Below, one piece after another: positions 4,471-43,880 of a DNA stretch of 44,022 nt. The stretch covers positions 1-44,022 of the forward strand of contig JAIPJO010000002.1 of the NCBI GenBank assembly GCA_021734135.1, read 5' to 3'. Below the pieces are notes generated by a model. The model searched no databases. It was not told the DNA's origin and worked only from the letters and a program-made list of their open reading frames with translations. The stretch's first letter is position 1. Every line of letters starts with the position of its first letter. A program made the translations under genes and the position numbers. This DNA comes from Patescibacteria group bacterium. GTDB lineage: Bacteria > Patescibacteriota > Patescibacteriia > Patescibacteriales > UBA12465.

Positions 4471-4472
4471 GT

Positions 4473-5468
4473 ATGGATTTACTTAAAAAAGTAAAAAATA
4501 ATAATTTAAAAGGTAGGGGTGGGGCAGGTTTTCCAGTTCATGATAAATGGAGTTTAGTTATAAAAGCAAAAGGAAGAGAGAAATATCTTATTGTTAATGG
4601 AGCTGAAGGTGAACCGGGTGTAAAAAAAGATGAATATATTATTAAACATTATACTGAAGAATTACTTAGCGGTATTAAAATTATTTTAGATTATATTAAA
4701 GCTAAAAAATGTATTTTATTTTTAAATCATAATTATATTAAATATGATGAAAAAATAAAAAAATATATAGATAGTAGTTATAATATAGAGATTGTATATA
4801 AAGAAAAAAATGCTGGATATATTGCTGGTGAAGAGAGTACTATGTTAAATATTCTAGAAGGTAAGCGTAGTGAACCAAGGATTAGACCTCCATTTCCAAC
4901 AGAAAGTGGATATAAAGGAAGTCCTACCTTGATACATAATATTGAAACTATTTATAATATTTATTTAGTTTCTTGCTCTCAGTACAAAAAAAACAGATTC
5001 TATACTATAAATGGTGAAGTAAAAAATCCTGGTGTATATAATTTACCAGCTAATTATAGTATTGCTAGAATACTGGAGGAAACTAATAACTTACCATTGT
5101 TCAAATTTTTTGTTCAACATGGAGGACAGGCTAGCGGGGAAATGTTAAATTCATCTCAACTAGAAAAAAAAGTTTCTGGTAGTGGCGCTATTACTATTTA
5201 TAGCTACAAAAATAATAATGATTATGAATTAATTAAGAGATTAATTAATTTTTATTTCAATAGTTCTTGTGGAAAGTGTACGCCCTGTAGAGAGGGTACT
5301 TATAGACTTAAAGAAATGCTTAGCAAAGAAAAAATGGACTGGAAACATTTTTTAGAATTAATTGATAATTTAGAAAATAGTTCATTTTGCGCTTTAGGAT
5401 CATCTTTAGCACTACCTATTAAATCATATATAAAAAATATTAATCCTAAATTTAAACCAGAACTTTAA
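4473..5468 (+). CDS. NuoF/HydB-like flavoprotein subunit (NADH- and FMN-binding, one 4Fe-4S), short form
   Basis: GRGGAGFP FMN motif, NGAEGEPG, EESTMLN, and CGKCTPCREG...FCALG cluster motif. It has only about 12 residues before the FMN motif and no extra ferredoxin domains. Confidence 0.85.
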   Translation: MDLLKKVKNNNLKGRGGAGFPVHDKWSLVIKAKGREKYLIVNGAEGEPGVKKDEYIIKHYTEELLSGIKIILDYIKAKKCILFLNHNYIKYDEKIKKYIDSSYNIEIVYKEKNAGYIAGEESTMLNILEGKRSEPRIRPPFPTESGYKGSPTLIHNIETIYNIYLVSCSQYKKNRFYTINGEVKNPGVYNLPANYSIARILEETNNLPLFKFFVQHGGQASGEMLNSSQLEKKVSGSGAITIYSYKNNNDYELIKRLINFYFNSSCGKCTPCREGTYRLKEMLSKEKMDWKHFLELIDNLENSSFCALGSSLALPIKSYIKNINPKFKPEL

Positions 5469-5470
5469 AT

Positions 5471-7201
5471 ATGAAAAAGTTTTATATTAAAATTAATAAT
5501 AAAAAGATTCTATGTAGTGAGCGAGATTCAATTTTAAATGTTGCTAGAAAAAATAAAATTGATATTCCTTCTTTGTGTTATCACCCTGATTTACCAGTTA
5601 AAGGTAATTGTGGTTTATGTTTAGTGGAAATAAAAGGTGCTAAAAAATTACTTAGGGCTTGCTCTGTTAAGGCAAAAGCAGGTATGGAAGTTAAGACTAA
5701 TACAGCTAAGGTAGTTAAATCAAGAAATTTAAATTTAGAGCTTTTATATGCTGAACATATAAATAAATGTAGTACTTGTGTAAATAGTATTGATTGTCAA
5801 CTTTTAAAGTTAGCTAGAAAATATAAAATAAATGCTAGCAATTTTCCTAAAAGAAAGACTGAGCGCAAAACATATAAGTTTGCTAATGCCGTGGAGATAG
5901 ATGGTAGTCAATGTATTGATTGCAGATCTTGTATTGACTCTTGTCAATTACTTAGTGGCATTAAACATTTAGAATTAAAAGGTAAAGGTGTAAAACAAGA
6001 GATTGTACCTAAAGGTCAAAAAGATAAATTAAGTGGCTTAGCTGCTAAGAAAAAGGGCTTTGCTTGTATATATTGTGGTCAATGTGCTCTGCATTGTCCA
6101 GTTGGTGCAGCTCAAGAACAAGATCAAATAAGTGAGGTAGAGACAGCTTTAAAGAATAAAAATGAAGATGAACTTATAGTAGCACAAATAGCTCCTTCAG
6201 TAAGAGTTAGTATTGGTGAGGAATTTGGTTTAAAACCAGGCACTTTAGTTACTGGTAAGCTAGTTACAGCTTTAAAAAAGTTAGGCTTTGATGCAGTTAT
6301 AGATGTTAATTTTGGAGCAGATACTACAACCATGGTAGAGGCGCAAGAATTAATTGATAGAATAAAAAATAAGAAACCGTTACCGCTTTTAACTTCTTGT
6401 TGTCCGGCTTGGGTCAGATATCTTGAATATTATCAACCAGAACTTATTAAATATTTAACATCTTCACGTTCACCACAAATGCATACAGCAGGACTAATAA
6501 AAACTTATTTTGCAAAAAGAAATAATATTTCTCCAGATAAAATAAAAGTTGTCTCTATTATGCCATGTACAGCTAAAAAATATGAAGCTACTAGAAAAGA
6601 ATTGAGGTTCAATAATAAAGATTTGATTGATTTTGTTTTAACAACTAGAGAAACAGCCTTTTTAATTGCTAAAAATAAAATAAAATTTAATGCTCTTAAA
6701 AATTCAAGTATGAATAATATTTTGTCTGAACATACAGGAGCAGCTGCTATTTATGGTTCTAGTGGAGGTGTAATGGAATCAGCAATTCGCACAGCTTTGC
6801 ATATATTAGAAAATAAAAAATTACCTAAAATTGATTTTAAAGAGTGTCGTGGCATGAAAGGATTAAAAGAAGCTAGTATAAAGATAAAAAATAGAAAATT
6901 AAATATCGCTATTGTTAATGGTTTAGCTAATTTTCAAAAAATAGTTGACCATATACAAAAATATGACTATATTGAAGTAATGACTTGTCCAGGTGGTTGT
7001 ATTGGTGGGGGTGGTCAACCAATCCCTACAAACTCAGATATTAGAGAAGCTAGAATGAAAGCTTTATATAATATAGACTCTAAAAAGAAACTTAGAAAGG
7101 CTCATGAAAATACTTATGCTTTAAAAGCTCTTCATTATTTAGAAAGTCAAAAAATTGATAAACAGATATTACATACTACTTATAGTGAAAAGAAAAAATA
7201 A
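5471..7201 (+). CDS. hydA: [FeFe] hydrogenase catalytic subunit (CpI/M3-like architecture)
   Basis: N-terminal 2Fe-2S (CYHPDL...CGLC...AC), CIDCRSCIDSC and CIYCGQCALHCP ferredoxin motifs, and H-cluster motifs TSCCPAW, MPCTAKKYE and CPGGCIGGGGQP. Confidence 0.93.
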   Translation: MKKFYIKINNKKILCSERDSILNVARKNKIDIPSLCYHPDLPVKGNCGLCLVEIKGAKKLLRACSVKAKAGMEVKTNTAKVVKSRNLNLELLYAEHINKCSTCVNSIDCQLLKLARKYKINASNFPKRKTERKTYKFANAVEIDGSQCIDCRSCIDSCQLLSGIKHLELKGKGVKQEIVPKGQKDKLSGLAAKKKGFACIYCGQCALHCPVGAAQEQDQISEVETALKNKNEDELIVAQIAPSVRVSIGEEFGLKPGTLVTGKLVTALKKLGFDAVIDVNFGADTTTMVEAQELIDRIKNKKPLPLLTSCCPAWVRYLEYYQPELIKYLTSSRSPQMHTAGLIKTYFAKRNNISPDKIKVVSIMPCTAKKYEATRKELRFNNKDLIDFVLTTRETAFLIAKNKIKFNALKNSSMNNILSEHTGAAAIYGSSGGVMESAIRTALHILENKKLPKIDFKECRGMKGLKEASIKIKNRKLNIAIVNGLANFQKIVDHIQKYDYIEVMTCPGGCIGGGGQPIPTNSDIREARMKALYNIDSKKKLRKAHENTYALKALHYLESQKIDKQILHTTYSEKKK

Positions 7202-21829: not shown

Positions 21830-22108
21830 TTATTTTTTAACAACATGAACAACTGTGCTTTGTTTTAGTTGACCATTAAATTTCTTCATTTTTTTACTTT
21901 GAAATTCAATAAATCCGCCCTCTTTAGCAAATAGGGAGTCATCATTACCTCTTAATACATTATTACCAGGATGATATTTAGTTCCACGTTGTCTTATTAT
22001 AATAGCACCAGGTTTTGCGTATTCACCGGCAAAGAGTTTTACCCCCAGCCTTCTTCCAATCGAATCCCTGGTATTGGCGGTTGATCCACCTGCTTTCTTG
22101 TGTGCCAT
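21830..22108 (-). CDS. rpmA: 50S ribosomal protein L27
   Basis: [24 protein letters not shown]...[16 protein letters not shown]. Confidence 0.95.
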
Positions 22109-22204: not shown

Positions 22205-23509
22205 TTAAGCTGCTTTTTTTGCATCTTTATATTCATGAGTAGATTTATGTACAAACTTATCACCCCCAATATCGTAACCAGCATGCTTAAAACTATGAGT
22301 GAGCACTTCGTTTAAAGTGTGTGAGCCATGACCAGCACCATGACTAGCAGCGCTAGATATTCCTTGATGTATTAAATCCATTCCACCAATAAGGGATCCG
22401 GCCATTAAAATATGAGTTCCTATTTTTGAATATTTCTTTATATTTTCATTTACCTTTTTAGATTTCATTTTTTTCTCATGAAGCTCAATTAAGCTATCCA
22501 TTGATCCGTCTAGTTTTTCTATTAATTTATCATCTTTTTTCTCTTGACGTTTATCTATACCTTTTTCTATAAAATCTGTTATTTTTTCACCAGCTAAAAC
22601 TCCAGCTATTGATTTACCTGCCATCATACCAGCTTTAACACCAAATGCCGCTAGACCTAGGCCACTGGTGGTTGCAGCTACCGTTGTACCCGCTACTACT
22701 CCAGCTACCATGGCTGCTTGGACATATTTATTTTTGGGCATATGTTTACCAACCGCAGAAAAGAATTTTTTAAGTTTTTGATTACTACCTTTTTCTAAGG
22801 TTTTTTCTCTTACTTCTTCATCTAGTTTATCTAAAGTAGATAAAGCGGCTTTAGTTTCAATTAGATTTTCTTTTTCTGGATTATTTTCAACCTCTTCCTT
22901 AATTTCTAAGAAAATCTCATCAACAGAATTATCTAGATACTCTTTTTTATTTTCTCTAATTTTTTCTTGATTTGATTTAATATCTTCTTTAATTTTTTCT
23001 TTTTCTGGGCCTTTAGCTTTTTTATATTCTAGTTTTAATTTCTTTATTTCTTTGTTAGCTTCTGCAATGTTATTTACTGCTTCAGCTTTTTTTTCAAGGT
23101 TCTTTTCTTTTTCTAGACTTTCTTTTTCATTTTCTTTATCTCTTTCTTTTTCTAGGCTTTCTTTATTTTCGCTATTTTCTTTTTTATTTTCATTGTTATC
23201 TTCAATACTTTCAACTTTATTTTTAAAATCTTCATGACTAGTATTAATTTCTTTTTCAGCTTTTGTTTTAAGTTCAGTCATTTCTGAAACAATTTCTTGA
23301 TTATCTTCAGCTGTTTCAGCTAAAGCTTCAAATTTTTTATTTAAATCTTTTTCACTATTTTCAACTTTTTCTTCACCTTTTTCAATTGCAGTATCTTTTA
23401 TATTTTCAATATCCTTTTCTAAACTAAAAGGATCTTCAACTTTATTTTCAAAACTCTCATGTTTTTCATTTTGATTTTCTATATTATTTTGTTCTTTTTC
23501 CTTATTCAT
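22205..23509 (-). CDS. Hypothetical protein: about 250-aa Glu/Lys-rich coiled-coil region plus Gly/Ala-zipper hydrophobic segments and a His-rich tail
   Basis: 434-aa ORF. Low-complexity KESLEKE-type repeats, then AAMVAGVVAGTTVAATTSGLGLAAFGVKAGMMAGKSIAGVLAG and ILMAGSLIGGMDLI, then HGAGHGSH. Confidence 0.6.
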   Translation of the reverse strand: MNKEKEQNNIENQNEKHESFENKVEDPFSLEKDIENIKDTAIEKGEEKVENSEKDLNKKFEALAETAEDNQEIVSEMTELKTKAEKEINTSHEDFKNKVESIEDNNENKKENSENKESLEKERDKENEKESLEKEKNLEKKAEAVNNIAEANKEIKKLKLEYKKAKGPEKEKIKEDIKSNQEKIRENKKEYLDNSVDEIFLEIKEEVENNPEKENLIETKAALSTLDKLDEEVREKTLEKGSNQKLKKFFSAVGKHMPKNKYVQAAMVAGVVAGTTVAATTSGLGLAAFGVKAGMMAGKSIAGVLAGEKITDFIEKGIDKRQEKKDDKLIEKLDGSMDSLIELHEKKMKSKKVNENIKKYSKIGTHILMAGSLIGGMDLIHQGISSAASHGAGHGSHTLNEVLTHSFKHAGYDIGGDKFVHKSTHEYKDAKKAA

Positions 23510-23514
23510 ATATT

Positions 23515-23694
23515 TTACATTTTTTTTAAATCATTCATTATTTTATTAATTTTTTCTTTTTCAACCGTGCTAGAAATTTCTGTCATTTCTGTAATACTTT
23601 TATCTATAATGTTTTTTAAATTTAAATCTAAATCATTTAAATATGATTTTATGAGCTCAATTTTTTCTTTTTTTTCTTTATCTTGATTTGCCAT
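23515..23694 (-). CDS. Hypothetical 59-aa helical protein (not in the ORF track)
   Basis: Hand translation gives MANQDKEKKEKIELIKSYLNDLDLNLKNIIDKSITEMTEISSTVEKEKINKIMNDLKKM. It fills the gap between two same-strand genes, leaving 9-nt and 5-nt spacers. Confidence 0.45.
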   Translation of the reverse strand: MANQDKEKKEKIELIKSYLNDLDLNLKNIIDKSITEMTEISSTVEKEKINKIMNDLKKM

Positions 23695-23703
23695 TTTGTT
23701 TTT

Positions 23704-24327
23704 TTATTCTTCTTTATTTTCATTTTTTCTCATTTCTGCAAATTTAGCTCTTAGCTTACTTTTTAAATAATCAACATCACTTGCAGTTTCTGCACTTATT
23801 TTTCTGTTTAGTTCTGGATAATTATTTTCAATATAAGAAATCACCTTATCTTCATCTCCAGTTTCTAAGATATCTTCAAAGGCTTTCTTTTCTTCTCCTT
23901 CGGTAGTATTTAATATTTCAGTACTAATTCTTTTAAGTGATATCTCACCCATTTTATTTAAGTTTTCAATATTAACATCATCTGATTCAGGCTCAGTTTC
24001 ATTATCATTTTGTTTTTTTTCATTGGTCATATTTTCTTCAATTAAATTTTGAGTTTTTTCTACCTCTTCTTTGATAATTTCAGAGAAGTTAGGAATTTTT
24101 TCTTGTAAATAGTTAAAGATTTTTTTTTCAGGATCAGACCCTCCGGCAGTTTCATCAAGTTCTTCTTTTTCTTCCTCACTAAGCATTTCTTGTGCTCTTA
24201 AAATTGTATTTTGATATGATATTTTTCCCATTTTTTTAAAGGTTTCTATTCTTTCTTCTTCTGTTTTTTCTTCCATGGCTTTGTTAAAAGGTGTTTCTTC
24301 AATTTTATTTCTTGAAAATCCTAGCAT
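23704..24327 (-). CDS. Hypothetical acidic protein with an internal duplication of an about 65-aa helical module
   Basis: 207-aa ORF. FKKMGKISYQNTILRAQEMLSEEEKEEL...SDPEKKIFNYLQEKIPNF aligns with LNKMGEISLKRISTEILNTTEGEEKKAF...GDEDKVISYIENNYPEL. Confidence 0.6.
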   Translation of the reverse strand: MLGFSRNKIEETPFNKAMEEKTEEERIETFKKMGKISYQNTILRAQEMLSEEEKEELDETAGGSDPEKKIFNYLQEKIPNFSEIIKEEVEKTQNLIEENMTNEKKQNDNETEPESDDVNIENLNKMGEISLKRISTEILNTTEGEEKKAFEDILETGDEDKVISYIENNYPELNRKISAETASDVDYLKSKLRAKFAEMRKNENKEE

Positions 24328-24485: not shown

Positions 24486-24674
24486 ATGAAAGTAAAAGTA
24501 GATAAAGATAAATGTATTAGTTGTGGTCTTTGCGCTAATATGTGTCCAGATATTTTTATCATGGATGAAGATAATAAATCAGAAGTAACAAAACAGCCTA
24601 GCGCCAAGGAAGAGTCTTGCGCTAAAGAAGCGATAGATTCTTGTCCAGTTGAAGCAATAAGTGAAGAAAAATAA
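24486..24674 (+). CDS. fdx: Single-[4Fe-4S] ferredoxin (Thermotoga/Pyrococcus type)
   Basis: 62 aa. CISCGLCANMCP plus distal CAKEAIDSCPVEAI; the overall pattern closely resembles 60-aa monocluster ferredoxins. Confidence 0.88.
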   Translation: MKVKVDKDKCISCGLCANMCPDIFIMDEDNKSEVTKQPSAKEESCAKEAIDSCPVEAISEEK

Positions 24675-24675
24675 T

Positions 24676-25185
24676 ATGGTAAATGAAACAAAAAATATAG
24701 AACAAATTCCTTTAAATGAAAGTCCTGAAAAAGATAATCAAGAAAAGGAGAGTTTTGTTAATGATAAGGAAGCTATAAAGAAACCTGAAAAACAGGAAGA
24801 TATACAAAAATCTCAAGAGAAAGAAGAGAAAGAGAAAATTCAAGTTAAAGATGATGTTAAAAAATCAGGAGTAAGAGTTGGTCAGGATCTTGTAAGTAAT
24901 GCCCAAAAAGAAAGAATGAAAAAAATTGATAAAATACTTTCAGAGGATATGGGTAATATTTTTTTAAATTTATCTAAAGATAAACAAAAAGAGTTTAAGA
25001 GTAAGGGCGAAAGCACTGTCGTTAAAGTTAATGAGTTAATGCAAAAAGCTAAGGTGAAAGTAAATAAAATAATAAAATTAATTAAAGAGTGGTTAGGCGT
25101 TATTCCTGATGCTAATAAATATTATTTAGAACAAGAGGCTAAAATTAAAGCAGATAAAATACTTAAATTAAAAAATAAGAGATAA
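24676..25185 (+). CDS. Hypothetical Lys/Glu-rich protein with a helical C-terminal half
   Basis: The ORF starts 1 nt after the ferredoxin stop (ATG 24676 preferred to 24661) and ends 2 nt before the next gene. I recognise no motif. Confidence 0.55.
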   Translation: MVNETKNIEQIPLNESPEKDNQEKESFVNDKEAIKKPEKQEDIQKSQEKEEKEKIQVKDDVKKSGVRVGQDLVSNAQKERMKKIDKILSEDMGNIFLNLSKDKQKEFKSKGESTVVKVNELMQKAKVKVNKIIKLIKEWLGVIPDANKYYLEQEAKIKADKILKLKNKR

Positions 25186-25187
25186 TT

Positions 25188-27668
25188 ATGTTGGCTGATT
25201 CATATAAATTTACAATTTATAGTTTTGATTTAAACTTTGATTTAGGTCAAGTTTTTTTAATATTTTTTTTAATAGGATTTTTAATATTAGCTCTTTTTAT
25301 TTTTAGAGCCTACAAAAGGAAAACTAATCATTTAAGTCACCAAGTATATTTAGTTAAACTACCTAAAGATAAACCTCAAGATAATAATAAAGAAGATACA
25401 GTTCAGGAGCTCAGAGAAGATATAGCTAAAGGTGAAACTATTTTTGCTTCAATTAGTGGATTAAAAGCACATAGAGGCTTTAAGGCTTGGTTGAAGGGCA
25501 GAGAAGATCATTTTGCTTTTGAAGTGGTGGCTCATAATGGTAAGATTGCTTTTTATGTTGCAGTGCCACCTAATCATGCTAGATATTTAGAGCAGAGAAT
25601 TAATGCTTATTACCCAGATGCTTCAATAGAGGAAATCTTTGATTATAATGCTTTTAATCCTAAAAATGAGATTATAGGGGGATGGCTAATGACTAAAAAG
25701 GAATTTGTTTTTCCTATAAAAACTTATACCGAAATGGAAGTGGACCCCATGAATTCAATTATTAATGTACTTACTAAGTTAGAGAAAACTGAAAGTATGG
25801 CTATACAGTTTGTAACTAGAAGTGCTAAAAGTTCATGGCACAGAAGAGTTAAAAATGTAGTACGTAAATCATATAAAAATAATTCAATAAGACAAGGTTT
25901 GAAGAAAGATGGTTTATCTGCATCTTTTTCACAATTTTTTAAACCTAAAAAAACACAAAATACCCCTATAGACCCAGAAGATCAGAAAAGATTAACCAAT
26001 AATGAGGAGGAATTACTTAAAAAAATGGAAATTAAAAATGGTAAAGGTGGTTTAGATGTTAATTTAAGAATTATTGTTAGTGCTGAAACTAAGGAAAAAA
26101 CTAGAATGTATTTAGAAAATTTAGGTAGTTCTTTTAGTGAGTATAATGCTTATGAAAGTGGTAATAATTTAAGTGGAATTAAAACTAAAAATCAAAGTAA
26201 AATAATTAAAGATTTTATTTACCGTCATTTTAATGAGAAGCAGGGATTTCTTTTAAGTACAGAGGAATTGGTTAGTTTATATCATTTACCTCTAAAAAAT
26301 ACAGAAACACCTAATATTTTATGGTTAACCGCTAAATCAGCTCCAGCTCCAAGTGAAATACCAACTGAAGGATTATTACTTGGAGAAAATTATTATAGAG
26401 GAGTTAAAAAAGATGTATATATTGATAGGAAAGACAGAAGAAGACATACCTATATTGTTGGTAAGTCAGGTGTTGGTAAATCTGTGCTTTTAACTAATAT
26501 GGCTGTACAAGATATTGAAAATGGTGAAGGGGTTTGCGTTTTAGATCCACATGGAGATTTAATTGGTGATATAATAGAAAGAATTCCCCCTGAACGCGCT
26601 GAGGATGTTATTGTGTTTTCTCCCGGTGATCTAGAAAGACCAATTGGTCTTAATTTATTAGAATATGATGAAAACTATCCTGAGCAAAAAAGTTTTGTTA
26701 TTAATGAAATGATTAATATTTTAGATAAGTTATATGACTTAAAAGCTACCGGTGGTCCCATGTTTGAACAATATATGAGAAATGCCTTACTTCTAATTAT
26801 GGATGATCCTGAATCCGGCTCTACTTTAATGGAAGTACCTAAAGTTTTAGCTGATGAAGATTTTAGAAGAATGAAGTTGGAGCGTTGTTCTAATATTTCC
26901 GTTATAGATTTTTGGAAAAAACAAGCTGAAAAAGCAGGTGGGGAAGCAGCTCTTGCTAATGTTGTTCCTTATATTACCTCTAAATTAACATCTTTTATTT
27001 CCAACGATATGATGAGACCGATTATTGGTCAACAAAAAAGTGCTTTTAATATTAGAGATATAATGGATAACCAGAAAATACTTTTAGTTGATCTTCCTAA
27101 AGGTGTGGTAGGGGAAATGAATGCTTATTTACTAGGAATGATCATGGTAGGAAAAATATTAATGGCATCACTATCTCGTGCAAATATGGACCCAGAAAAA
27201 CGTAAAGATTTTTACTTGTATATTGATGAGTTTCAAAACTTTACCACTGATTCAATTACGCAAATTCTTTCAGAAGCAAGGAAATATAATTTGAATTTAA
27301 TTATTGCCCATCAATATATTGGTCAGTTAAGTAAAAATCAAGATACTAGCATTAAAGATGCAGTCTTTGGTAATGCTGGTACTATGATTAGTTTTAAGGT
27401 GGGTTCAGACGATGCTGAGTATTTAGTGAAAGAATATTCACCTGTTTTTAATGAATATGATTTAATTAATATTGGAAAAGGTACTGCTTATCTTAAGCTT
27501 CTAGTTGATAATGCTGCTGTAAAACCATTTTCTATACAAACTATTTTTCCTGTTATGGGTACTGTTAGACCTGAAATTACTGAGAAAATTAGATCTTTAA
27601 GTAAATTGAAATATGGTAAAAATAGGCGTTTAATTGAGGCTGAGATAAATAAAAGCTCATCTTTTTAA
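25188..27668 (+). CDS. Membrane-anchored TraD/TraG/VirD4-like (type IV coupling protein family) P-loop ATPase with an unassigned about 380-aa N-domain
   Basis: One TM helix (VFLIFFLIGFLILALFIF). Walker A GKSGVGKS (26460-26483), VLDPHGDL, Walker B YLYIDEFQNF (about 27214-27240), and IIAHQYIGQL. Confidence 0.75.
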   Translation: MLADSYKFTIYSFDLNFDLGQVFLIFFLIGFLILALFIFRAYKRKTNHLSHQVYLVKLPKDKPQDNNKEDTVQELREDIAKGETIFASISGLKAHRGFKAWLKGREDHFAFEVVAHNGKIAFYVAVPPNHARYLEQRINAYYPDASIEEIFDYNAFNPKNEIIGGWLMTKKEFVFPIKTYTEMEVDPMNSIINVLTKLEKTESMAIQFVTRSAKSSWHRRVKNVVRKSYKNNSIRQGLKKDGLSASFSQFFKPKKTQNTPIDPEDQKRLTNNEEELLKKMEIKNGKGGLDVNLRIIVSAETKEKTRMYLENLGSSFSEYNAYESGNNLSGIKTKNQSKIIKDFIYRHFNEKQGFLLSTEELVSLYHLPLKNTETPNILWLTAKSAPAPSEIPTEGLLLGENYYRGVKKDVYIDRKDRRRHTYIVGKSGVGKSVLLTNMAVQDIENGEGVCVLDPHGDLIGDIIERIPPERAEDVIVFSPGDLERPIGLNLLEYDENYPEQKSFVINEMINILDKLYDLKATGGPMFEQYMRNALLLIMDDPESGSTLMEVPKVLADEDFRRMKLERCSNISVIDFWKKQAEKAGGEAALANVVPYITSKLTSFISNDMMRPIIGQQKSAFNIRDIMDNQKILLVDLPKGVVGEMNAYLLGMIMVGKILMASLSRANMDPEKRKDFYLYIDEFQNFTTDSITQILSEARKYNLNLIIAHQYIGQLSKNQDTSIKDAVFGNAGTMISFKVGSDDAEYLVKEYSPVFNEYDLINIGKGTAYLKLLVDNAAVKPFSIQTIFPVMGTVRPEITEKIRSLSKLKYGKNRRLIEAEINKSSSF

Positions 27669-27678
27669 TTTAAAGATA

Positions 27679-27707
27679 TTGACAAAATATAGTTAATATA
27701 CTAGAAT
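27679..27707 (+). promoter_or_regulatory. Candidate sigma70-type promoter for ORF 27774
   Basis: TTGACA (27679-27684), an exact 17-nt spacer, then TAGAAT (27702-27707). Confidence 0.5.
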
Positions 27708-27773: not shown

Positions 27774-28352
27774 ATGAAAACAGAAGCTATGAATGTAAGT
27801 AAATTTTTTCAAGAGTTTAAAATGTTAAAAGAAGATATTGTTACTTGGTTTAAAGATCTTAGTTTATTGCATGGTAGTATAGTAAATAAAGCAAGATCTG
27901 ATTTACCCAGTGAAGCAATTGAAGTTAATTTTGTTGTTGACTATTCACTTAGTCTGCAGGAAATGATTGAAGCTTGTGATTTTGATTGGTATGACAAAGA
28001 TATCAATGAAAAAAACTTTCCTATTCCAATAGAGTTAAAAGGAAAAAGAATCTACAGAAAAGCTAAAATAATACATTTTCATGATTATTTTAGTAGCCAA
28101 GAAGCTGTATTTGAGGCAAAAAAATATTGGCCTCAATATCGTCAAGCAACATTAGCTGAGCAATTAGCTTTTGCTGAGACTTATCCGGATTTGAAAAAAT
28201 ATTTAGCTATTACCATTTTTGGTTCTATTTGGTCTTTCATTTTTTCTCGTGTACCCGTTCTTGATTTTAGTGATAATAAGCGCCGACTTATATTAGGCTG
28301 GTATAACAGAATTTGGTTAAGTAGTAATTATATCCTTATTGTCTCTAAATAG
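27774..28352 (+). CDS. Hypothetical 192-aa protein (orphan, monocistronic)
   Basis: GGAGG at 27763-27767, 6 nt before the ATG, with its own promoter-like element and terminator. No catalytic motif recognised. Confidence 0.6.
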   Translation: MKTEAMNVSKFFQEFKMLKEDIVTWFKDLSLLHGSIVNKARSDLPSEAIEVNFVVDYSLSLQEMIEACDFDWYDKDINEKNFPIPIELKGKRIYRKAKIIHFHDYFSSQEAVFEAKKYWPQYRQATLAEQLAFAETYPDLKKYLAITIFGSIWSFIFSRVPVLDFSDNKRRLILGWYNRIWLSSNYILIVSK

Positions 28353-28377: not shown

Positions 28378-28409
28378 AAATCTCGTTTTAAACTTAAGCG
28401 AGATTTTTT
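28378..28409 (+). terminator. Rho-independent terminator after ORF 27774
   Basis: aaatctcgttt / aagcgagattt, an 11-bp stem (one G-U pair) with a 7-nt loop and a T-run. Confidence 0.65.
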
Positions 28410-28478: not shown

Positions 28479-30257
28479 ATGGCTACATTATCTAGAAAAT
28501 ATAGACCTAAGACTTTTAAACAAGTTATAGGTCAAAATCACATTAAAACCAGCCTGGAAAGCGAAATCATTAATAATGATTTAGCACAGGCTTATCTTTT
28601 TTGTGGGCCCAGAGCTGTTGGTAAAACAACCTTAGCTAGAATTTTAGCTAAAAGTCTAAATTGTTTAAATCGTAAAGAAGGGGAATCTGAACCTTGTAAT
28701 GAATGTAGTTCTTGTTTAAATATTAATAAAAATAAAAGTATTGAGGTAATTGAAATAGATGCTGCTAGTCATACTGGTGTAGATAACGTTAGAGAAAATA
28801 TTATTAACTCAGCTAGAGTTGCCCCTACAAATTTAAAATATAAAGTTTTTATTGTTGATGAGGTGCACATGTTATCTATTTCTGCTTTTAATGCTTTACT
28901 TAAAGTTATAGAAGAGCCACCACAACACGTTGTATTTATACTTTGCACTACTGAAGTTCACAAAATTCCTGCAACTGTTATTTCTAGGTGTGAAAGGATG
29001 GATTTTAAACGTTTAAATATAAGTGATACGGTACAAAAATTACAATCTATTGTTGATTTAGAAGAGATCAGCGTTGATAAAGGGGTATTAGAAACTATTG
29101 CTAGACATTCAGGAGGATATTTAAGAGATGCTGAAAGTCTTTTAGGGCAAGTTATATCTCTTAGTTCTGAGAAAAAAATTAGTACTGAGCAAGCTAATTT
29201 AATATTACCGCAAAGTGATATTTTACAAGCTGTTAAATATCTTAATCATATTGCTAGCTCAGAAACAGCTAAAGCAATTAGGCTCGTTAATAATTTGATT
29301 GACTCAGGTATTGATTTAAATAGTTTTTTAGCTGATATTTTACAAATACTTAGAAAATTAATTGTAGAGAAAGTAAACGCTGGTTTATCTCAAAGTTTAG
29401 GTTTAGATTTTGGTGAAAGTATAGAAAAAGAAATATTAAGCTTAAGTACAAAATTGGATATTGAAAAAATTGCTTGGTATATTGATAATTATATTAAAAC
29501 TAATGAAAGTTTAAAAAATGCACAAATAAAGCAGTTACCACTTGAACTTGTATCAGTTAAGTTGGCGGAGAATAGAAAAACATATAGTTCTGATAATTAT
29601 AAAAATAATGAAAGTGGTGGTAATAATTTTAAACAAAAAAATGAAGATTCAACTAACAGTCTTAAAAAAGATAATATAAATAATAATCAAGTAAATAATT
29701 ATAACTTTACAGAAAATAATATAAATAAAGAAAAAAAAGAAGAAGAAAAAATCAATAAAGATAAAGAAGTAGAGATAGAAAAAGAAGAAGAAAAAGAGCT
29801 AAATATTAAAGAAGATGATTTAGCTGAAAAGATAGATATAAATATTGATGATATTCAGGCTAAATGGAGAGAGTTTATTTTAAAAATAAAAAGTGAAAAT
29901 CACTCTTTAACTTTTATTTTGCAAAATTGTTGGCCAAGTGAAGTTAAAGATGGAATTATTAATTTAAAATGTAAATATAAATTTCATCAAGATAGATTAA
30001 AAGATGCTAATATTCAAGATGTAATAAATAAAAATTTATATAATATCTTTAAATTACATTTAAAGTATATAACTAATATTGATAGTAATTTAGAGGTGCC
30101 AAGATCGAGAAGTAAAAAAGAAGATAAAAGTGAAGAAAAAAATATAGATGACTCTAAAAATGAGAAAATAAAAAAAGAAAAAGCTCAAGTTGATGATGAG
30201 CAAAAAGGTGCAATTAATAATATACTTAATGCCTTTGGTGGCGAAGTTATAAGCTAA
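28479..30257 (+). CDS. dnaX: DNA polymerase III subunit tau/gamma
   Basis: GPRAVGKTT Walker A, a zinc module CxxCxxC, DEVHMLS and SRC. An Asn/Lys/Glu-rich linker separates domains I-III from the C-terminal domain. Confidence 0.93.
   Translation: MATLSRKYRPKTFKQVIGQNHIKTSLESEIINNDLAQAYLFCGPRAVGKTTLARILAKSLNCLNRKEGESEPCNECSSCLNINKNKSIEVIEIDAASHTGVDNVRENIINSARVAPTNLKYKVFIVDEVHMLSISAFNALLKVIEEPPQHVVFILCTTEVHKIPATVISRCERMDFKRLNISDTVQKLQSIVDLEEISVDKGVLETIARHSGGYLRDAESLLGQVISLSSEKKISTEQANLILPQSDILQAVKYLNHIASSETAKAIRLVNNLIDSGIDLNSFLADILQILRKLIVEKVNAGLSQSLGLDFGESIEKEILSLSTKLDIEKIAWYIDNYIKTNESLKNAQIKQLPLELVSVKLAENRKTYSSDNYKNNESGGNNFKQKNEDSTNSLKKDNINNNQVNNYNFTENNINKEKKEEEKINKDKEVEIEKEEEKELNIKEDDLAEKIDINIDDIQAKWREFILKIKSENHSLTFILQNCWPSEVKDGIINLKCKYKFHQDRLKDANIQDVINKNLYNIFKLHLKYITNIDSNLEVPRSRSKKEDKSEEKNIDDSKNEKIKKEKAQVDDEQKGAINNILNAFGGEVIS
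29732..29738 (+). other. A_AAA_AAA heptamer in the dnaX linker (candidate -1 frameshift or slippage site)
   Basis: The zero-frame codons are GAA AAA AAA GAA. The -1 frame reads AGA AGA AGA AAA AAT CAA TAA, with the stop at 29756-29758. Confidence 0.25.
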
Positions 30258-38647: not shown

Positions 38648-39580
38648 ATGTCTTATTTACCTTACCTAGATGACTTCCTTTTAAACCTTAAGGTTAACAA
38701 TTATTCACAAGAAACTATTTATAACTATGAACGTGATTTAAATGTTTTTTTAAACTTTTTACAGAATTCAAAGCTTGATTTCGATAAATTAAACAAAAAA
38801 GACTTACTTAACTACAAGGCGCTTTTAACTTCGATTGATAGAACTACCGCTAAATCTCAAAAAACAACTAAAAAACTTTCTCCTTATTCAATCAATAGAA
38901 TGCTTTCAGCTATTAGAGCTTATTTAAAATATTTAATTGATAATGATTATGATGTTCCCTTGGCTCCTGATACAATAAAAATGCTTAAAACTATTAAGAA
39001 GAAATCTCAAGTACCAGAATTAGAACAATTAGTCAAGCTTATTGAAGCTCCCAATACATTTGAAAAAAATAATAAAATTGCCATTAGAAACAGGGCTATA
39101 TTAGAAATTTTATTTGCTACTGGTCTTCGTATTACTGAGTTAGTAAATATAAAAATTAATTCTATTGATAAAGAAGGTAAAATTTTTATCTTAGGTAAAG
39201 GGAAAAAAGAAAGATTCGTTTATTTAACTCCAAGAGCACTTACACACCTTAATAATTACCTAAAAATTAGGCCTGAGCACTCCCCTTATCTCTTTGTTCC
39301 CTATCGTGGTCTAAATGCAGGGGCAAAGCATAAAAAGCTCTCTACGAACTATTTACAAGAAAGAATTAAAAGATATAGAGAGTATTTAGATATTAATATT
39401 CCAGCTTCTGCTCATTCTTTAAGACATGGATTTGCAACTTATTTAGCTGAATCAGGGGCCTCCCCTGCTGCTATACAAATTCTTCTAGGACATGAATCAC
39501 TTGATACTACTACTAGATATGTTCATGCTTCTGATAAGTATGCCCAAAGAATACATAAACGTTATCACCCTTTGAAATAG
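38648..39580 (+). CDS. XerC/XerD-family tyrosine recombinase
   Basis: N-terminal SAM-like domain. The catalytic region has ATGLRITEL, HSLRHGFATYL, LLGHESLDTTTRYVH (R-H-R-H...Y). Confidence 0.88.
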   Translation: MSYLPYLDDFLLNLKVNNYSQETIYNYERDLNVFLNFLQNSKLDFDKLNKKDLLNYKALLTSIDRTTAKSQKTTKKLSPYSINRMLSAIRAYLKYLIDNDYDVPLAPDTIKMLKTIKKKSQVPELEQLVKLIEAPNTFEKNNKIAIRNRAILEILFATGLRITELVNIKINSIDKEGKIFILGKGKKERFVYLTPRALTHLNNYLKIRPEHSPYLFVPYRGLNAGAKHKKLSTNYLQERIKRYREYLDINIPASAHSLRHGFATYLAESGASPAAIQILLGHESLDTTTRYVHASDKYAQRIHKRYHPLK

Positions 39581-39675: not shown

Positions 39676-42600
39676 ATGAAAAAATATATTCTTTGGTTAA
39701 TACCAGTGTTAGTAATTACGTTATTATTTTTCTATAAAGTTCAAGCATCTCAAGATGTCATTGGTATTCGTGTTTTACCTAATCCTGATCATTATTCAGT
39801 GTTAAGATGGTATGAAAATCAAGGATTTACAGGTAGTCCTCAATCTATGTTAATTGACGGATATAGAGCTATACGTGATGGAAGAACTGTTTATATTAAT
39901 ACTGCTAATGTTTCCGAAGGAAGACTTTATACTAATATTTATTTAATTTCATATAATCAAGATACTCAGCCCGGAACTACTGATATTTTTGGTAAAATAC
40001 TTTCTAATTGGAAATTTAACACCAATATTAACAATAGAGGGACTTGCTCTATATCAAGTTTAAATTGTCAAAGTGATGATGACTGTAATAATGGTTATAT
40101 ATGTAGTGAATCAGAAAATAAATGTGTTTTAGAAGAAGTTTCACAATGCTTATCAGATAGTCAATGTCCTAGTGGATTATTTTGTGATAGTGATAAAGCT
40201 AAATTAATTAGAGATACTAAAAGATTATCAGATTTAAGTGAGCTAAAAGTATATCTTGAAAATTATAAAAATAAATTTAATAGAAATCATTATCCAAAAT
40301 TAACATCTGGCACATATATACCTGGCAGTACTGTTTCTACTTGGCCTAGTTGGCAATATGAGCTAGCCTCAACTCTTGATTTAAATAATCTACCTGTAGA
40401 TCCTATTAATACTATAGGTAAATGTGATGGTAACTTTGATCCTGTTACTTGTTGGAATTCTGATGATAAAGAATTTTATGGCAACATTACAGGCATGGAC
40501 TTCCCTGTTAATAGTAGATTATATTTTTATTACACTGCCGATTTAGGTCAAACTGCTAATTTTTGTACCTTTATTGAAGGTAATTATTCTAATATCCCAC
40601 CTTTATCGTGTGTTTTTAATATAACTACTAATTTTGCCCCTGTTATTACACATGCTGACATGACTGCTTATCCTAATGAGGAATTTTCTAAATATATTTC
40701 TGTTACCGATTTAAATAACGACAGTCTTAATTGGAGTCTTAATACTTCTAATGTTGATTGGACTAATTATGGATGGTCTGCACCACCTGTATTAAAAGAC
40801 ACTGAACATGATAGGCAAACACAACTTTATGCTGAGCAAGCTGGAGAGATTGGAGATTATCCTTTAACCATAAGAGTGGAGGATGATAGGGGTTTATATG
40901 ATGAAAAAATATTGAATATATCAATTAGAAATTTAAATCTTATAGATTATATTTCTATTGGAGAAAGTAAAGAATATTATGTTAATGGCCGTAATTTAGG
41001 TTCAAATTCTAATTTTGATATTAATTTAAGAAATGCTAGTTATAATTCAACATCTATTAGTCTAGAACAATTAAATAATTATGGATTCACCTTTGATTCA
41101 AATAACTTTCTTTTAAAAGAAAATTTTACCCCAGCTCAACATACAGGAGAATATGAAATTAATCTTTATGCATTAAATAATAATTCTGGAGAAAAAACCG
41201 ATTCCTCTTTTGATTTAACTATTGAAAATAACCCTCCTTATGTAGAGGAAGTTGAAGCTGTTTATAGTAATGGAGATACTGAAAGCTGTATACATTCTGA
41301 TCAATGTGTTTTTATTATTGATAACGCTGAAGAAGCCACTTTGCAAGTTATAGCTGAAGATGATAACCCAGGTCACATTCTTAGCTACTCTCTAGAAAAC
41401 AATTTAGATGGTGCTATAAGTATTAATTCTAATATAGGTATTATCTCTGGTTTAAATAATTTAAATTATCACGAAACTGAAATAGCAGAGTTTGATTTTC
41501 AAGTTCGTATTAGTGATCAATATTGTGCAAATTCTACAGAAGAAAGTTGTTCTACATATAAAGATATTAAAGTAGTAGTACAGGAATATTGCTCAGTTAA
41601 TACACCAGAAACGCTTCTTAGCACCAATCCAATTGAAGAGAGTCCAGTAACGGTGAATACTTCTGGTCAAACGATAAATATTGGAAATGAGGCTATAGAT
41701 TGCTCTGATATTGGTAACAGTAGTGTTGATATTAAATATATTGGTGATGCAAATAGCAAGGTAATCATATTTGTTATGGATTATTCTAAAAGTATGGACA
41801 CCTTAATAAATGGTATACCTGCAATAGATAGAGCTAAAGCTGCTCTCACTGATGATAATGACGGTGTCTTAAAAACCATTCATGAAACAGCTTTAGAGCT
41901 ACCTGAAGAGCATTCTATTGAGGTTGGGCTTGTTATATATAATACTAATGTTCACTCTTATGGTCCCCTTGATATTTCACAAGAATCTAATTTGCAACAA
42001 TTAAAGTCTAATATACTTAATTATAATACATATTATCAAACTAAAACCTTAGATGCTTTAAATGAGGCTGAAAACTTATTGGATTCACCCGAGTATTCAG
42101 ATATAAATAAATCTATTATTTTAATGAGTGATGGCTACCCTGGTGTAGATCAAAGAGTTATAAGTGGAGGTGAATGCTATCCTGATTGTGAAGATCCTGA
42201 ATGTGATCCTTGTCCAGAGGGAACATATAGGAGTGGTACTCATTGCACTTGTGAATGTGTACCTCGTACTTGTTGGTGTCAAGGAGAATATCCTGATTGT
42301 TCAACGCCTGTTTGTGGTCCATGCCCGGATGGAGAAAAAAGAATTAATTATTGTACCTGTGAATGTGCTGCTCCTACTTGCCTGTGTGGAGGCACTTACC
42401 CTAATTGTACATGGCCTACTGGATGTGAGTGTGGTAGATCTGGATGTTCTTGTCGTACTAATTGTGGTTCTGTATACAATGACTTAGAAGAAGATAATAT
42501 TGATAATTATAATGACCTAGATTTTAAAATGGCTATAACTGAGCAAACCCAATGCCTTGATACTAATACTCCTTGTGAGGAAGGTTGTTCTTCAAATCAA

Positions 42601-43059
42601 CGATGTCGAGGATTTGATGTTGAGCAAAATTATAATTGCGATACTTCTGATGATGTATTGACTCAAGCAAATTATTTAAAGAATAATGGTGTTCAGATAT
42701 CAGCTATTTATTATGATACTACTGATGAATCTGGACCAGCTCAAAAAATGTGTGAATGGTCTAGTAATAACGGAGTTGATTGTGATAATGAGACTTATTT
42801 TTACGCTGGTACAGATATTAATAAGTTATTTGATGATGTGTTAGTTAATATAGTTAATAAACCAAAAGCTGTAGAAATAGCTGAATTTGAACTTGAAGAT
42901 AGTAATCCTCATCAGTTAGAGAGTTTTCTAGAAGGCGTAAACATAGACGATGCTCTTAATTGTGGTTATCCTAACTTAGCCGTAGAATATACAGATACAG
43001 GATATTTAGAATTCTCAAATTTAAGTTATGATTACTGCCCTGCTAAATTACATCAATAA
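39676..43059 (+). CDS. Large secreted/anchored multi-domain protein: pilin-like module, Ig-like repeats, and a vWA domain with a Cys-rich insert
   Basis: N-terminal hydrophobic leader. RDTKRLSDLSELKVYLENYKNKFNRNHYP resembles the globular-head start of type IV pilin-like proteins. vWA MIDAS DYSKS at 41779-41793, then IILMSDGYPG. 23 Cys within 97 aa at 42175-42465. Confidence 0.65.
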   Translation: MKKYILWLIPVLVITLLFFYKVQASQDVIGIRVLPNPDHYSVLRWYENQGFTGSPQSMLIDGYRAIRDGRTVYINTANVSEGRLYTNIYLISYNQDTQPGTTDIFGKILSNWKFNTNINNRGTCSISSLNCQSDDDCNNGYICSESENKCVLEEVSQCLSDSQCPSGLFCDSDKAKLIRDTKRLSDLSELKVYLENYKNKFNRNHYPKLTSGTYIPGSTVSTWPSWQYELASTLDLNNLPVDPINTIGKCDGNFDPVTCWNSDDKEFYGNITGMDFPVNSRLYFYYTADLGQTANFCTFIEGNYSNIPPLSCVFNITTNFAPVITHADMTAYPNEEFSKYISVTDLNNDSLNWSLNTSNVDWTNYGWSAPPVLKDTEHDRQTQLYAEQAGEIGDYPLTIRVEDDRGLYDEKILNISIRNLNLIDYISIGESKEYYVNGRNLGSNSNFDINLRNASYNSTSISLEQLNNYGFTFDSNNFLLKENFTPAQHTGEYEINLYALNNNSGEKTDSSFDLTIENNPPYVEEVEAVYSNGDTESCIHSDQCVFIIDNAEEATLQVIAEDDNPGHILSYSLENNLDGAISINSNIGIISGLNNLNYHETEIAEFDFQVRISDQYCANSTEESCSTYKDIKVVVQEYCSVNTPETLLSTNPIEESPVTVNTSGQTINIGNEAIDCSDIGNSSVDIKYIGDANSKVIIFVMDYSKSMDTLINGIPAIDRAKAALTDDNDGVLKTIHETALELPEEHSIEVGLVIYNTNVHSYGPLDISQESNLQQLKSNILNYNTYYQTKTLDALNEAENLLDSPEYSDINKSIILMSDGYPGVDQRVISGGECYPDCEDPECDPCPEGTYRSGTHCTCECVPRTCWCQGEYPDCSTPVCGPCPDGEKRINYCTCECAAPTCLCGGTYPNCTWPTGCECGRSGCSCRTNCGSVYNDLEEDNIDNYNDLDFKMAITEQTQCLDTNTPCEEGCSSNQRCRGFDVEQNYNCDTSDDVLTQANYLKNNGVQISAIYYDTTDESGPAQKMCEWSSNNGVDCDNETYFYAGTDINKLFDDVLVNIVNKPKAVEIAEFELEDSNPHQLESFLEGVNIDDALNCGYPNLAVEYTDTGYLEFSNLSYDYCPAKLHQ
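42175..42465 (+). repeat. Tandem Cys-rich protein repeats (about 37 aa, 2.5 copies) with locally elevated GC
   Basis: YPDCEDPECDPCPEGTYRSGTHCTCECVPRTCWCQGE / YPDCSTPVCGPCPDGEKRINYCTCECAAPTCLCGGT / YPNCTWPTGCECGRSGCSCRTNC. The stop-free alternative frame (track ORF 42164-42487) reflects the composition shift. Confidence 0.8.
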
Positions 43060-43061
43060 AT

Positions 43062-43880
43062 ATGAATAAAAAAATATTAATAATTTTAACAATCTTAGCA
43101 TTTTTTGTTTTTAGTGTTTTTATTGTTTTAAACAACAATAATAAAATAGACATACCTTCAATTACAGATAAAAAAGAAAGTGAAAAAGAAAGTGAAAGTG
43201 ATAAAAAAGAAAATATAGAAGAAGAACAACCGCCCTTTTTAGATATATGTAGTGGTGATATTAATGATGAAGAATTAGCTGAGATTTGTAAAATTGAAAA
43301 AACAATTAATAAGGCAACAAAGAATTTAGATGCTAGTAAATGTTTAAATATTAAAGAAGAGTTCAGACAAAGATGTATTATTGATATACTTAAGATTAAT
43401 CCAGATTCAGTTGATTGTTCTTTATTTGATGGTAGGAATAATTTTGTATGCTTATCTGAAAAGAAATATCATCAAGCTATAAGTAGAGATGATAGTGATT
43501 TGTGTTTAGAAATAAAAGATAAAATAAAAAGAGCTAATTGTTTTAATGTTATAGACAAAGTAGATTTACATGGAGATGAAGATGGTGATGGCCTTAGTTT
43601 TTTAGAAGAAATGATGCATGGTACTAATCCAAATTTAAAAGATAGTGATGGTGATGGTTTTAATGATAGTGAAGAGGTTAAAAATAATTATAATCCTGTT
43701 GGAGAAGGAAAAATTAATCAAGAAACTATTCTAGTGAAGTGCAATGAAATTGAAGACGAGGATATGCAAATACTTTGTAAACAAGAGATGGATAATGATA
43801 CAATTGATTTAGAAAAATGCTATGACATAGAATCAGAAGAATTATATAACTATTGTTTAAGTTTATTAGAGTCTCTTTAA
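43062..43880 (+). CDS. Hypothetical anchored protein with a paired-Cys pattern and thrombospondin-type-3-like calcium-binding repeats
   Basis: N-terminal TM helix, DEDGDGLSFLEEMMHGTNPNLKDSDGDGFNDSEE, and regularly spaced Cys pairs. It starts 2 nt after the upstream stop. Confidence 0.6.
   Translation: MNKKILIILTILAFFVFSVFIVLNNNNKIDIPSITDKKESEKESESDKKENIEEEQPPFLDICSGDINDEELAEICKIEKTINKATKNLDASKCLNIKEEFRQRCIIDILKINPDSVDCSLFDGRNNFVCLSEKKYHQAISRDDSDLCLEIKDKIKRANCFNVIDKVDLHGDEDGDGLSFLEEMMHGTNPNLKDSDGDGFNDSEEVKNNYNPVGEGKINQETILVKCNEIEDEDMQILCKQEMDNDTIDLEKCYDIESEELYNYCLSLLESL

Follow-up and report, generated by a model that had tools for sequence, protein, structure and literature searches.

Patescibacteria depend on a chromosomal type IV secretion system (T4SS) for their epibiotic life. 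Transposon sequencing in Southlakia found an essential T4SS gene cluster with no recognisable coupling protein (PMC10633639, Wang et al. 2023), and a survey of 3,026 Patescibacteria assemblies counted 5,713 homologues of the VirD4-type type IV coupling protein (T4CP) in 2,918 of them, only 148 lying near virB4; VirB4 itself was present in about 2,400 assemblies, and the authors considered exaptation of the T4CP homologues possible (PMC12102498, Quinonero-Coronel et al. 2025). In Patescibacteria generally, no coupling protein has been found in the T4SS gene cluster, and the orphan homologues are near-universal. Here we describe a locus on a 44,022-nucleotide (nt) stretch of contig JAIPJO010000002.1 from a Patescibacteria group bacterium, the whole of which we call the window, where a ferredoxin, a small Lys/Glu-rich protein (g2) and a membrane-anchored ATPase are encoded head to tail. 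The ATPase fits the description of the surveyed orphans, which are chromosomal, number about two per genome and almost never lie beside virB4 or a relaxase gene, and it carries the same Pfam signatures. We favour, with rather better than even confidence, the explanation that g2 and the ATPase constitute a functional module to which the ferredoxin does not belong; with similar confidence we take the two to be one clade's version of a Patescibacteria-wide pair, comprising a small partner and an NTPase, anchored in the membrane, that belongs within the FtsK-HerA superfamily to the VirB4/VirD4 branch.

The ORF (open reading frame) listing and our reading of the sequence agree that the ferredoxin and g2 genes are separated by 1 nt and the g2 and ATPase genes by 2 nt, as the original prediction had stated. 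That prediction was also sound in its outline of the third gene, in which a single N-terminal transmembrane (TM) helix and a coupling-protein-type motor were both recovered; the four motifs that it quoted from the motor begin at residues 425, 451, 678 and 705. Among 77 aligned ATPases, hundreds of positions are invariant, including G425, K426, S427, G428, G430, K431 and S432 of Walker A and all of the YIDEFQNF motif, whose D and E are invariant in distant alignments too. The basic residues that follow the TM helix predict that the rest of the protein is cytoplasmic. Within residues ~400–760, T4SS-DNA_transf (36.7 bits against a threshold of 20.1), TrwB_AAD_bind (33.1 against 20.5), TraG-D_C (28.1 against 22) and DUF87 all pass their Pfam thresholds, the DUF87 match being limited to the Walker A region; by accession, the protein carries PF26449.1 together with PF10412, PF01935, PF02534 and PF12696. 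The NCBIfam T4CP models score far under their cut-offs (SXT_TraD, 58.8 against 366; CD1115, 39.4 against 250), as does VirB4_CagE TIGR00929, which reaches 28 bits against a cut-off of 643 and covers residues 664–764 only. No VirB4-named Pfam family matched the ATPase, and TrwB was its sole sequence match in the PDB. Judged by sequence, with Pfam thresholds passed and 58.8 bits to set against 28, the motor is nearer to coupling proteins than to VirB4.

The roughly 380 residues ahead of the motor, which the original prediction could not assign and marked out for a structure search, gave a different affinity. A full-length AlphaFold2 model built from the 77-sequence alignment (mean predicted local distance difference test score (pLDDT) 71.9, mostly 80–93 in the N-domain) has a long N-terminal helix, an alpha/beta N-domain (~50–370) and a RecA-type core in which helices 499–604 are inserted between strands 474–477 and 631–635. 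Foldseek searches of the PDB with this model placed TrwK/VirB4 of R388 at ranks 1–10 (E 9.5e-11 to 8.4e-7), with ~840–936 aligned columns spanning both domains; DotL (1e-6), Cag-beta (2e-6) and HerA (1.6e-5) came next and aligned over the motor only, and no FtsK or SpoIIIE structure was among the matches with E <= 1e-3. The original prediction had foreseen that the ATPase might cluster with FtsK or HerA instead, and by Foldseek it is no closer to either than to VirB4 and the T4CPs. A separate model of residues 46–395 (pLDDT 60, predicted template-modelling score 0.62) had as its sole PDB matches with E <= 1.5e-3 (from 4.5e-4) the TrwK/VirB4 chains 7o42_A, 7o41_B and 8rtd_g. On these models, the region is best described as having a fold like that of the VirB4 N-terminal domain.

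This architecture is widespread. A database search returned 4,681 ATPase homologues with E <= 1e-10; the best 120 of these are 65–86% identical to the window protein, are 805–854 amino acids (aa) long save for two truncated entries, all carry PF26449 (DUF8128), and have named sources in Patescibacteria, Parcubacteria, Falkowbacteria and Pacebacteria. A HMMER scan with the N-domain alone found 1,911 cluster representatives (50% clustering, E <= 1e-3), in which DUF8128 nearly always occupies residues ~50–400 of proteins of 800–860 aa, some longer forms reaching 900–2,000 aa. The ATPase is a conserved protein of the VirB4/VirD4 translocase-module type and a typical member of this large Patescibacteria DUF8128 family. 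Tandem DUF8128 paralogues occur in three loci (L091 3603-7955, L096 4935-9985 and L110 242-6143), in agreement with published counts of about two T4CP homologues for each Patescibacteria genome; in a neighbour-joining tree the second copies of L096 and L110 join P0382 and P0389 in a deep clade that stands apart.

The second gene encodes a protein that, as had been noted, is rich in Lys (21.9%) and Glu (12.4%) over its 169 aa; it has no Cys and no TM segment, and matches no Pfam or NCBIfam family. An alternative GTG start at 24661 would give 174 aa, and homologues begin at the MVNE... Met. The N-terminal half of g2 is variable and of low complexity, the C-terminal ~95 residues are conserved, and the motif W-L-x2-I-P-x2-N-x3-LEQEAKIKAD is invariant. 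All 231 homologues that we found are Patescibacteria hypothetical proteins of 155–190 aa with no Pfam family. In locus L079 (3694-6726), an in-frame ORF of 1,010 aa joins a complete g2 domain (residues 6–171) to the ATPase, an ORF excluded from our g2 hidden Markov model, which was built on ORFs of <320 aa; the fusion, if real, ties g2 to the short N-terminal tail before the TM helix and raises a question of topology.

We scanned three Pfam-annotated loci and 80 genome loci with profiles of the window proteins. Gene order was counted wherever 900 nt or more of upstream sequence was available, in 72 loci whose ATPases are 58–71% identical. The order ferredoxin–g2–ATPase was found in 46 of the 72, g2–ATPase without the ferredoxin in 13, and the ATPase with neither in another 13, six of which have a membrane protein of ~760–960 aa upstream instead. 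Where g2 is present (59 loci), it mostly lies 1–17 nt 5' of the ATPase gene; across 50 loci, the ferredoxin–g2 spacer measures 1–47 nt (median 7). dnaX follows directly or closely in most close loci. The adjacency of the triad, which had been expected to prove accidental if relatives did not share it, is not due to chance within the clade, because the same order and short spacers recur in 46 related loci. Going by order and spacing, the three genes are co-transcribed, and in one sub-lineage they form a stable operon. Among the genome loci (L004–L083), many of the metagenome-assembled genome records are titled 'uncultured Gammaproteobacteria bacterium', with single ones titled Planctomycetota, Bacillota or Nanoarchaeia; these titles are probably mislabelled or the genomes mis-binned.

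Further afield, we aligned 22 distant full-length members, 33–42% identical to the window ATPase, and with this alignment retrieved 80 metagenome loci. A g2-type partner was present in only ~6 of the 80 and dnaX lay downstream in ~13. Upstream sequence was long enough in 66 loci, and in 59 of these a same-strand ORF ended <=250 nt from the ATPase start. Two other types of partner were apparent among these ORFs, one ending ...LDxxHDxL... (LDxxHD type, ~18–21 loci) and one ending ...WLAxWC.R... (WLAxWC type, 11 loci); both resemble g2 in layout, with a variable low-complexity N-half and a short conserved helical C-terminus, and neither has a Pfam family. A phmmer match between g2 and the LDxxHD type was rejected as running only via low-complexity regions, and in hhalign comparisons of g2 with each of the other two types the probability was <1%. 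In a rough neighbour-joining tree the partner types are distributed by ATPase clade, the window ATPase grouping with other g2-associated ATPases. The small partner is thus present upstream of most family members, evolves fast and co-diversifies with the ATPase, and we propose that g2 is this clade's version of it, acting as an adaptor or partner of the ATPase.

Saccharibacteria extend the pattern. Searching with a profile built from the longer family members, we found PF26449 proteins of ~990–1,150 aa, some of them named 'TraM recognition domain-containing protein [Candidatus Saccharibacteria]'; they lie in the context Mg-chelatase (minus strand) ... 159–170-aa hypothetical protein, ATPase, gyrB, gyrA, and their upstream partners match none of the g2, LDxxHD and WLAxWC types. 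In the Southlakia study, which gives the only Tn-seq data available, SEML1_0138 is Mg-chelatase-like and on the minus strand, SEML1_0141 encodes a 139-aa hypothetical protein scored GD/ES/ES and lies 13 nt 5' of SEML1_0142, and SEML1_0142, a 'TraM recognition domain' ATPase of ~1,000 aa with its P-loop domain at 381–800, scored essential (PMC10633639). A second such ATPase there, SEML1_0293 (921 aa, TrwB_AAD_bind 402–719), scored non-essential (PMC10633639). The later survey cites the Southlakia t4cp as non-essential (PMC12102498); SEML1_0142, a second such ATPase besides it, scores essential. The context of SEML1_0141/0142 (Mg-chelatase ... small gene, ATPase ... gyrB) is that of the Saccharibacteria DUF8128 proteins, and differs from that of the window in having no ferredoxin and in having gyrBA rather than dnaX as neighbours; the Saccharibacteria-type small partner is not detectably homologous to g2, and ~35–39% ATPase identity is expected from a related cluster. 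SEML1_0141/0142 are most likely the Saccharibacteria counterpart of the pair of small partner and DUF8128 ATPase.

Were g2 and the ATPase to work as such a module, the single N-terminal helix would tether the ATPase to the cytoplasmic membrane, with a VirB4-like DUF8128 domain in the cytoplasm followed by the coupling-protein-like RecA motor at the C-terminus. By analogy with VirB4 and TrwB, the ATPase would form a hexameric ring, and at the membrane ATP hydrolysis would power either the movement of a macromolecular substrate or the building of an envelope structure; the conserved C-terminal helices of the small partner may bind the ATPase, the partner serving as adaptor or regulator, while the ferredoxin would serve enzymes of fermentative redox metabolism, the [FeFe]-hydrogenase and NuoF-like protein of the window among them. 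As to its role, our analysis leads us to prefer, at somewhat less than an even chance within this explanation, that the module may supply the missing coupling ATPase, or a second energising ATPase, of the chromosomal Patescibacteria T4SS encoded elsewhere; the rest of our weight goes to a T4SS-independent role in the envelope or in DNA handling, or to something else. The essentiality of SEML1_0141/0142 alongside that of the T4SS is consistent with a T4SS-ATPase role. More tentatively still, DUF8128 ATPases and their fast-evolving partners could make up a third, unrecognised VirB4/VirD4 branch and an essential Patescibacteria machine, which we consider rather unlikely.

Several observations weigh against this module and its proposed role. 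Only synteny, name, length and domain positions link SEML1_0142 to the DUF8128 family, and the partner types have no detectable mutual homology, a shared role being suggested by position only. The g2–ATPase fusion was seen once and could be a sequencing error. The likeness to the VirB4 N-terminal domain comes from predicted models (pLDDT 72 and 60, template-modelling scores 0.3–0.4) and has no sequence-profile support. T4CP homologues occur in 96% of assemblies as against ~80% for VirB4, and rarely near virB4, which argues against an obligatory T4SS role. Lastly, the short ferredoxin–g2 spacing (median 7 nt in 50 loci) indicates stable co-expression and is compatible with a real functional link in the clade.

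The alternative that survives best is a DNA pump tied to replication or segregation, in which the module would handle chromosomal DNA at the membrane (segregation, support of decatenation, uptake or export) independently of any T4SS. Replication genes are indeed recurrent neighbours, dnaX downstream in most close loci and gyrB-gyrA directly 3' of the ATPase in Saccharibacteria, but reduced genomes of the candidate phyla radiation (CPR) consist mostly of housekeeping genes, so that neighbourhood is weak evidence. The motor bears the TrwB 'DNA-binding' and TraG-D_C signatures, T4CP homologues are found in more assemblies than VirB4, and the Southlakia orthologue identified by synteny is essential. 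On the other side, Saccharibacteria retain a canonical ftsK (TM7x_00370), the significant structural matches include VirB4 and T4CPs and no FtsK/SpoIIIE, and the ATPase has neither an FtsK gamma domain nor an FtsK_SpoIIIE Pfam match. A DNA-handling role is suggested as a serious rival to the T4SS-linked module that we prefer, and we nonetheless judge it unlikely.

The ferredoxin bears on a second alternative, in which it would be a third subunit in the Falkowbacteria-like clade, coupling redox state to ATPase activity or substrate transfer. It is, as first described, a monocluster [4Fe-4S] protein: it matches Pfam Fer4_13 (E 2.5e-19), has the ~60-aa length and CxxCxxC...CP ligands of that type with Cys at positions 10, 13, 16, 20, 45 and 53, and aligns full-length with the solved monocluster ferredoxins of Thermotoga maritima (1rof/1vjw, E 2.4e-16) and Pyrococcus furiosus (E 2.8e-14). 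The T. maritima and P. furiosus proteins (1vjw, 1rof, 2z8q) share its size, its ligands and its second Cys pair, and its sole oddity beside them is its place at the head of an operon. Ligands are kept in 49 of 49 full-length orthologue ORFs (a 50th, in L064, is cut at the start of the locus, only the C-terminal CP being present), whereas 14 of the 49 lack all or part of the second pair, Cys20/Cys45, a pattern to be expected of a dispensable disulfide such as that of the ferredoxins from T. maritima and P. furiosus. The [FeFe]-hydrogenase/NuoF-like module of the window is a plausible client of the ferredoxin, and ferredoxin-dependent fermentative enzymes and Fe–S assembly genes lie ~15–20 kb from the triad.

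In favour of redox gating, the triad is kept in 46 loci with short spacers, the ferredoxin stays with g2 and the ATPase despite insertions of 1–2 kb that separate it from rpmA (in the window, L006, L011 and L023), and it was never seen beside the ATPase without g2. Yet it is absent from 13 loci that have both g2 and the ATPase, among them L030, whose flanks are identical and which retains rpmA (minus strand), g2, ATPase, dnaX and serS, and none of the 80 distant loci has it next to the ATPase, nor do the Saccharibacteria loci that we examined; it joined the operon head in one sub-lineage only. Neither g2 nor the ATPase has an Fe–S or redox-sensing Cys motif, the two Cys of the ATPase are not conserved in distant members, and we saw the ferredoxin fused to neither partner. 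We read the ferredoxin as a co-transcribed passenger, and very probably so, because it is a generic carrier with metabolic clients in the window and neither partner offers a redox-sensing Cys; its role is probably that of a general electron carrier and not of a subunit of the ATPase module. If true, redox gating would give the first redox-gated ATPase for secretion or DNA translocation, an essential, phylum-specific VirB4/VirD4 hybrid switched by the redox state of the cell. We regard it as improbable, and the tempting reading as 'redox-gated secretion', which the original prediction had raised as a possibility, is left unsupported by a standard carrier confined to one sub-clade. A literature search found no paper tying a ferredoxin to T4CPs in CPR.

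Outside CPR, the nearest relatives of the motor are orphan 'T4SS DNA-binding domain' ATPases at 27–34% identity, mostly plasmid-borne (307 plasmid records, 261 of them typed non-mobilizable), one of which lies between CHAT and TPR genes; the one homologue tested, from a Bradyrhizobium plasmid (L167 6044-8170), lacks DUF8128 and has an unrelated N-region. Use outside conjugation may be widespread among orphan T4CP-like ATPases. That the ATPase is a remnant coupling protein left by the decay of a conjugative or integrative element, or belongs to a defence island, would accord with its T4CP Pfam signatures, a PADLOC 'mad8' match on the motor (E 3.8e-15) and these plasmid relatives, but is largely refuted and hardly credible given the uniform GC of the window, housekeeping flanks syntenic in dozens of genomes, strong purifying selection (65–70% identity across many lineages and hundreds of invariant positions), the lack of an adjacent relaxase, integrase or other defence gene, and a tested plasmid homologue without DUF8128. 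Two specific candidates were rejected: a defence system, as the PADLOC 'mad8' and HerA matches span the generic motor only and there are no partner genes, and a mobile element, ruled out by uniform GC and conserved housekeeping synteny.

The features of the locus are collected in Table 1. Our family scan covered the ORFs of at least 90 aa in the window, whose GC is ~28% and even along its length. The flanks of the triad (rpmA, dnaX and serS) are housekeeping genes, as stated in the original prediction, and so was its report of missing mobility genes borne out as regards VirB4, VirB6, relaxase and pilin, of which no family was found among these ORFs; it erred over integrases, a XerC/D-type tyrosine recombinase lying just 3' of ftsQ, although this looks like a housekeeping gene. 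No VirB3-, VirB6- or VirB8-type membrane partner family was found in the window either, and no relaxase or VirB-type gene in six Pfam-annotated related loci.

Table 1. Features of the window and of related loci; positions are those of the window unless a locus is named.
Feature	Position	Strand	Remark
Ferredoxin	24486..24674	+	62 aa, stop TAA 24672-24674; first gene of transcription unit
g2	24676..25185	+	169 aa from ATG 24676
ATPase	25188..27668	+	826 aa
TM helix (residues 21-39)	25248..25304	+	Kyte-Doolittle window score 2.94; helix 15-46 in AlphaFold2 model
DUF8128 N-domain (residues ~46-395)	25323..26372	+	PF26449; fold like VirB4 N-terminal domain in model
P-loop motor (residues ~400-770), helical insertion ~499-613	26385..27497	+	Pfam T4CP families, AlphaFold2 model
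Walker A GKSGVGKS (residues 425-432)	26460..26483	+	sequence
Walker B region YIDEFQNF (residues 678-685)	27219..27242	+	sequence
rpmA	21830-22108	-	5' of triad, opposite strand
Three Lys/Glu-rich ORFs (434 aa, 59 aa, 207 aa)	22205-24327	-	inserted between rpmA and ferredoxin
207-aa ORF with DUF5663 match	23704-24327	-	Pfam
192-aa ORF	27774-28352		between ATPase and dnaX; no Pfam, NCBIfam or PADLOC family
dnaX	28479-30257		3' of ATPase; serS also downstream
GAPDH	3448-4470		head-to-tail with next two genes
NuoF-like flavoprotein	4473-5468		
[FeFe]-hydrogenase with 2Fe-2S N-domain	5471-7201		
XerC/D-type tyrosine recombinase	38648-39580		just 3' of ftsQ; Phage_integrase and SAM-like N-domain
DUF5663-like protein	L086 3956-4276		
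DUF5663-like protein	L087 4012-4320		
DUF5663-like protein	L089 1894-2232		
DUF5663-like protein	L134 1831-2133		
DUF5663-like protein	L122 7379-7687		
DUF5663-like protein	L126 8786-9076		

Between rpmA and the ferredoxin, the related loci L001–L003 have a gap of only ~200–500 nt with no gene called inside. Like the window, six distant metagenome loci encode a small DUF5663-like protein 1–2 genes away from a DUF8128 ATPase; these proteins may be another accessory component of the ATPase module. The 192-aa ORF has no homologue among 83 close loci and is probably a lineage-specific insertion; a promoter-like, near-consensus site lies at 27679-27707, between the ATPase stop and this ORF, and a terminator-like hairpin at 28378-28406, 3' of it, but a promoter and terminator scan of the window gave counts no higher than the shuffled expectation. 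The other ORFs of at least 90 aa in the window are housekeeping or metabolic; it also encodes SOD, rpsB, tsf, GAPDH, a CCA-adding enzyme, NifS/NifU, an rplA-rplK-nusG cluster, metG, Sua5, CtpA and pyrG, and, on its downstream side, serS, a GHL15/FG-GAP protein, alr, ddl, ftsQ, the XerC/D-type recombinase and a VWA protein. The block at 3448-7201 looks like an NAD(H)/ferredoxin-linked hydrogenase module joined into a glycolytic operon. Two genes towards the end of the window (39676-43880) are candidates for a surface adhesin pair: the first product, of 1,127 aa, contains 4.4% Cys, a hydrophobic segment at its N-terminus and a VWA domain, and the second, of 272 aa, has bacterial TSP3 repeats. 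A tRNA scan of the window found no tRNA genes.

The original prediction had presented the locus as an undescribed system, which is partly right. The N-domain is already listed as Pfam DUF8128, and proteins of this kind were counted among the orphan T4CP homologues in 2025 (PMC12102498); that paper contains neither the DUF8128/VirB4-like N-domain nor the small upstream partner nor a ferredoxin linkage, the word 'ferredoxin' being absent from its text. Our literature search found no paper mentioning 'DUF8128', and in none of the literature searched did we find the VirB4-like N-domain, the co-diversifying small partner, the synteny link to the essential Southlakia pair or the clade-specific ferredoxin operon. 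With its VirB4-like N-domain and coupling-protein-like motor, the DUF8128 ATPase is a specific candidate either for the missing ATPase or for a membrane translocase that would be both new and essential, and it offers defined targets for genetics in Southlakia and Nanosynbacter.

Set beside described ATPases, the window protein combines features of two families. With VirB4/TrwK (7o42, 7o41, 8rtd) it has in common a two-part layout, an N-domain of ~400 aa ahead of a RecA-type ATPase into which helices are inserted; it differs in sequence (~10% identity), in having its own TM helix and in not being encoded with VirB3, VirB6 or VirB8. VirB3 and VirB4 offer a parallel to g2 and the ATPase, in that the gene for the small protein lies just upstream and the two are once fused, although g2, unlike VirB3, has no TM segments. 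The T4CPs TrwB, VirD4, TraD and DotL share with it the Walker A/B motor, the Pfam signatures and an N-terminal membrane anchor; in them, however, a two-TM domain is joined directly to the nucleotide-binding domain, whereas the window ATPase has one TM helix and an extra domain of ~350 aa before the motor, scores far under the NCBIfam T4CP cut-offs and lies in a housekeeping context with no relaxase or T4SS genes nearby. FtsK/SpoIIIE are set apart by their multi-TM N-terminus and gamma domain, both lacking in the window ATPase, which has no FtsK_SpoIIIE match in Pfam or NCBIfam; HerA ranks under VirB4 and the T4CPs, its PADLOC matches are weak, and no NurA or other partner gene is present.

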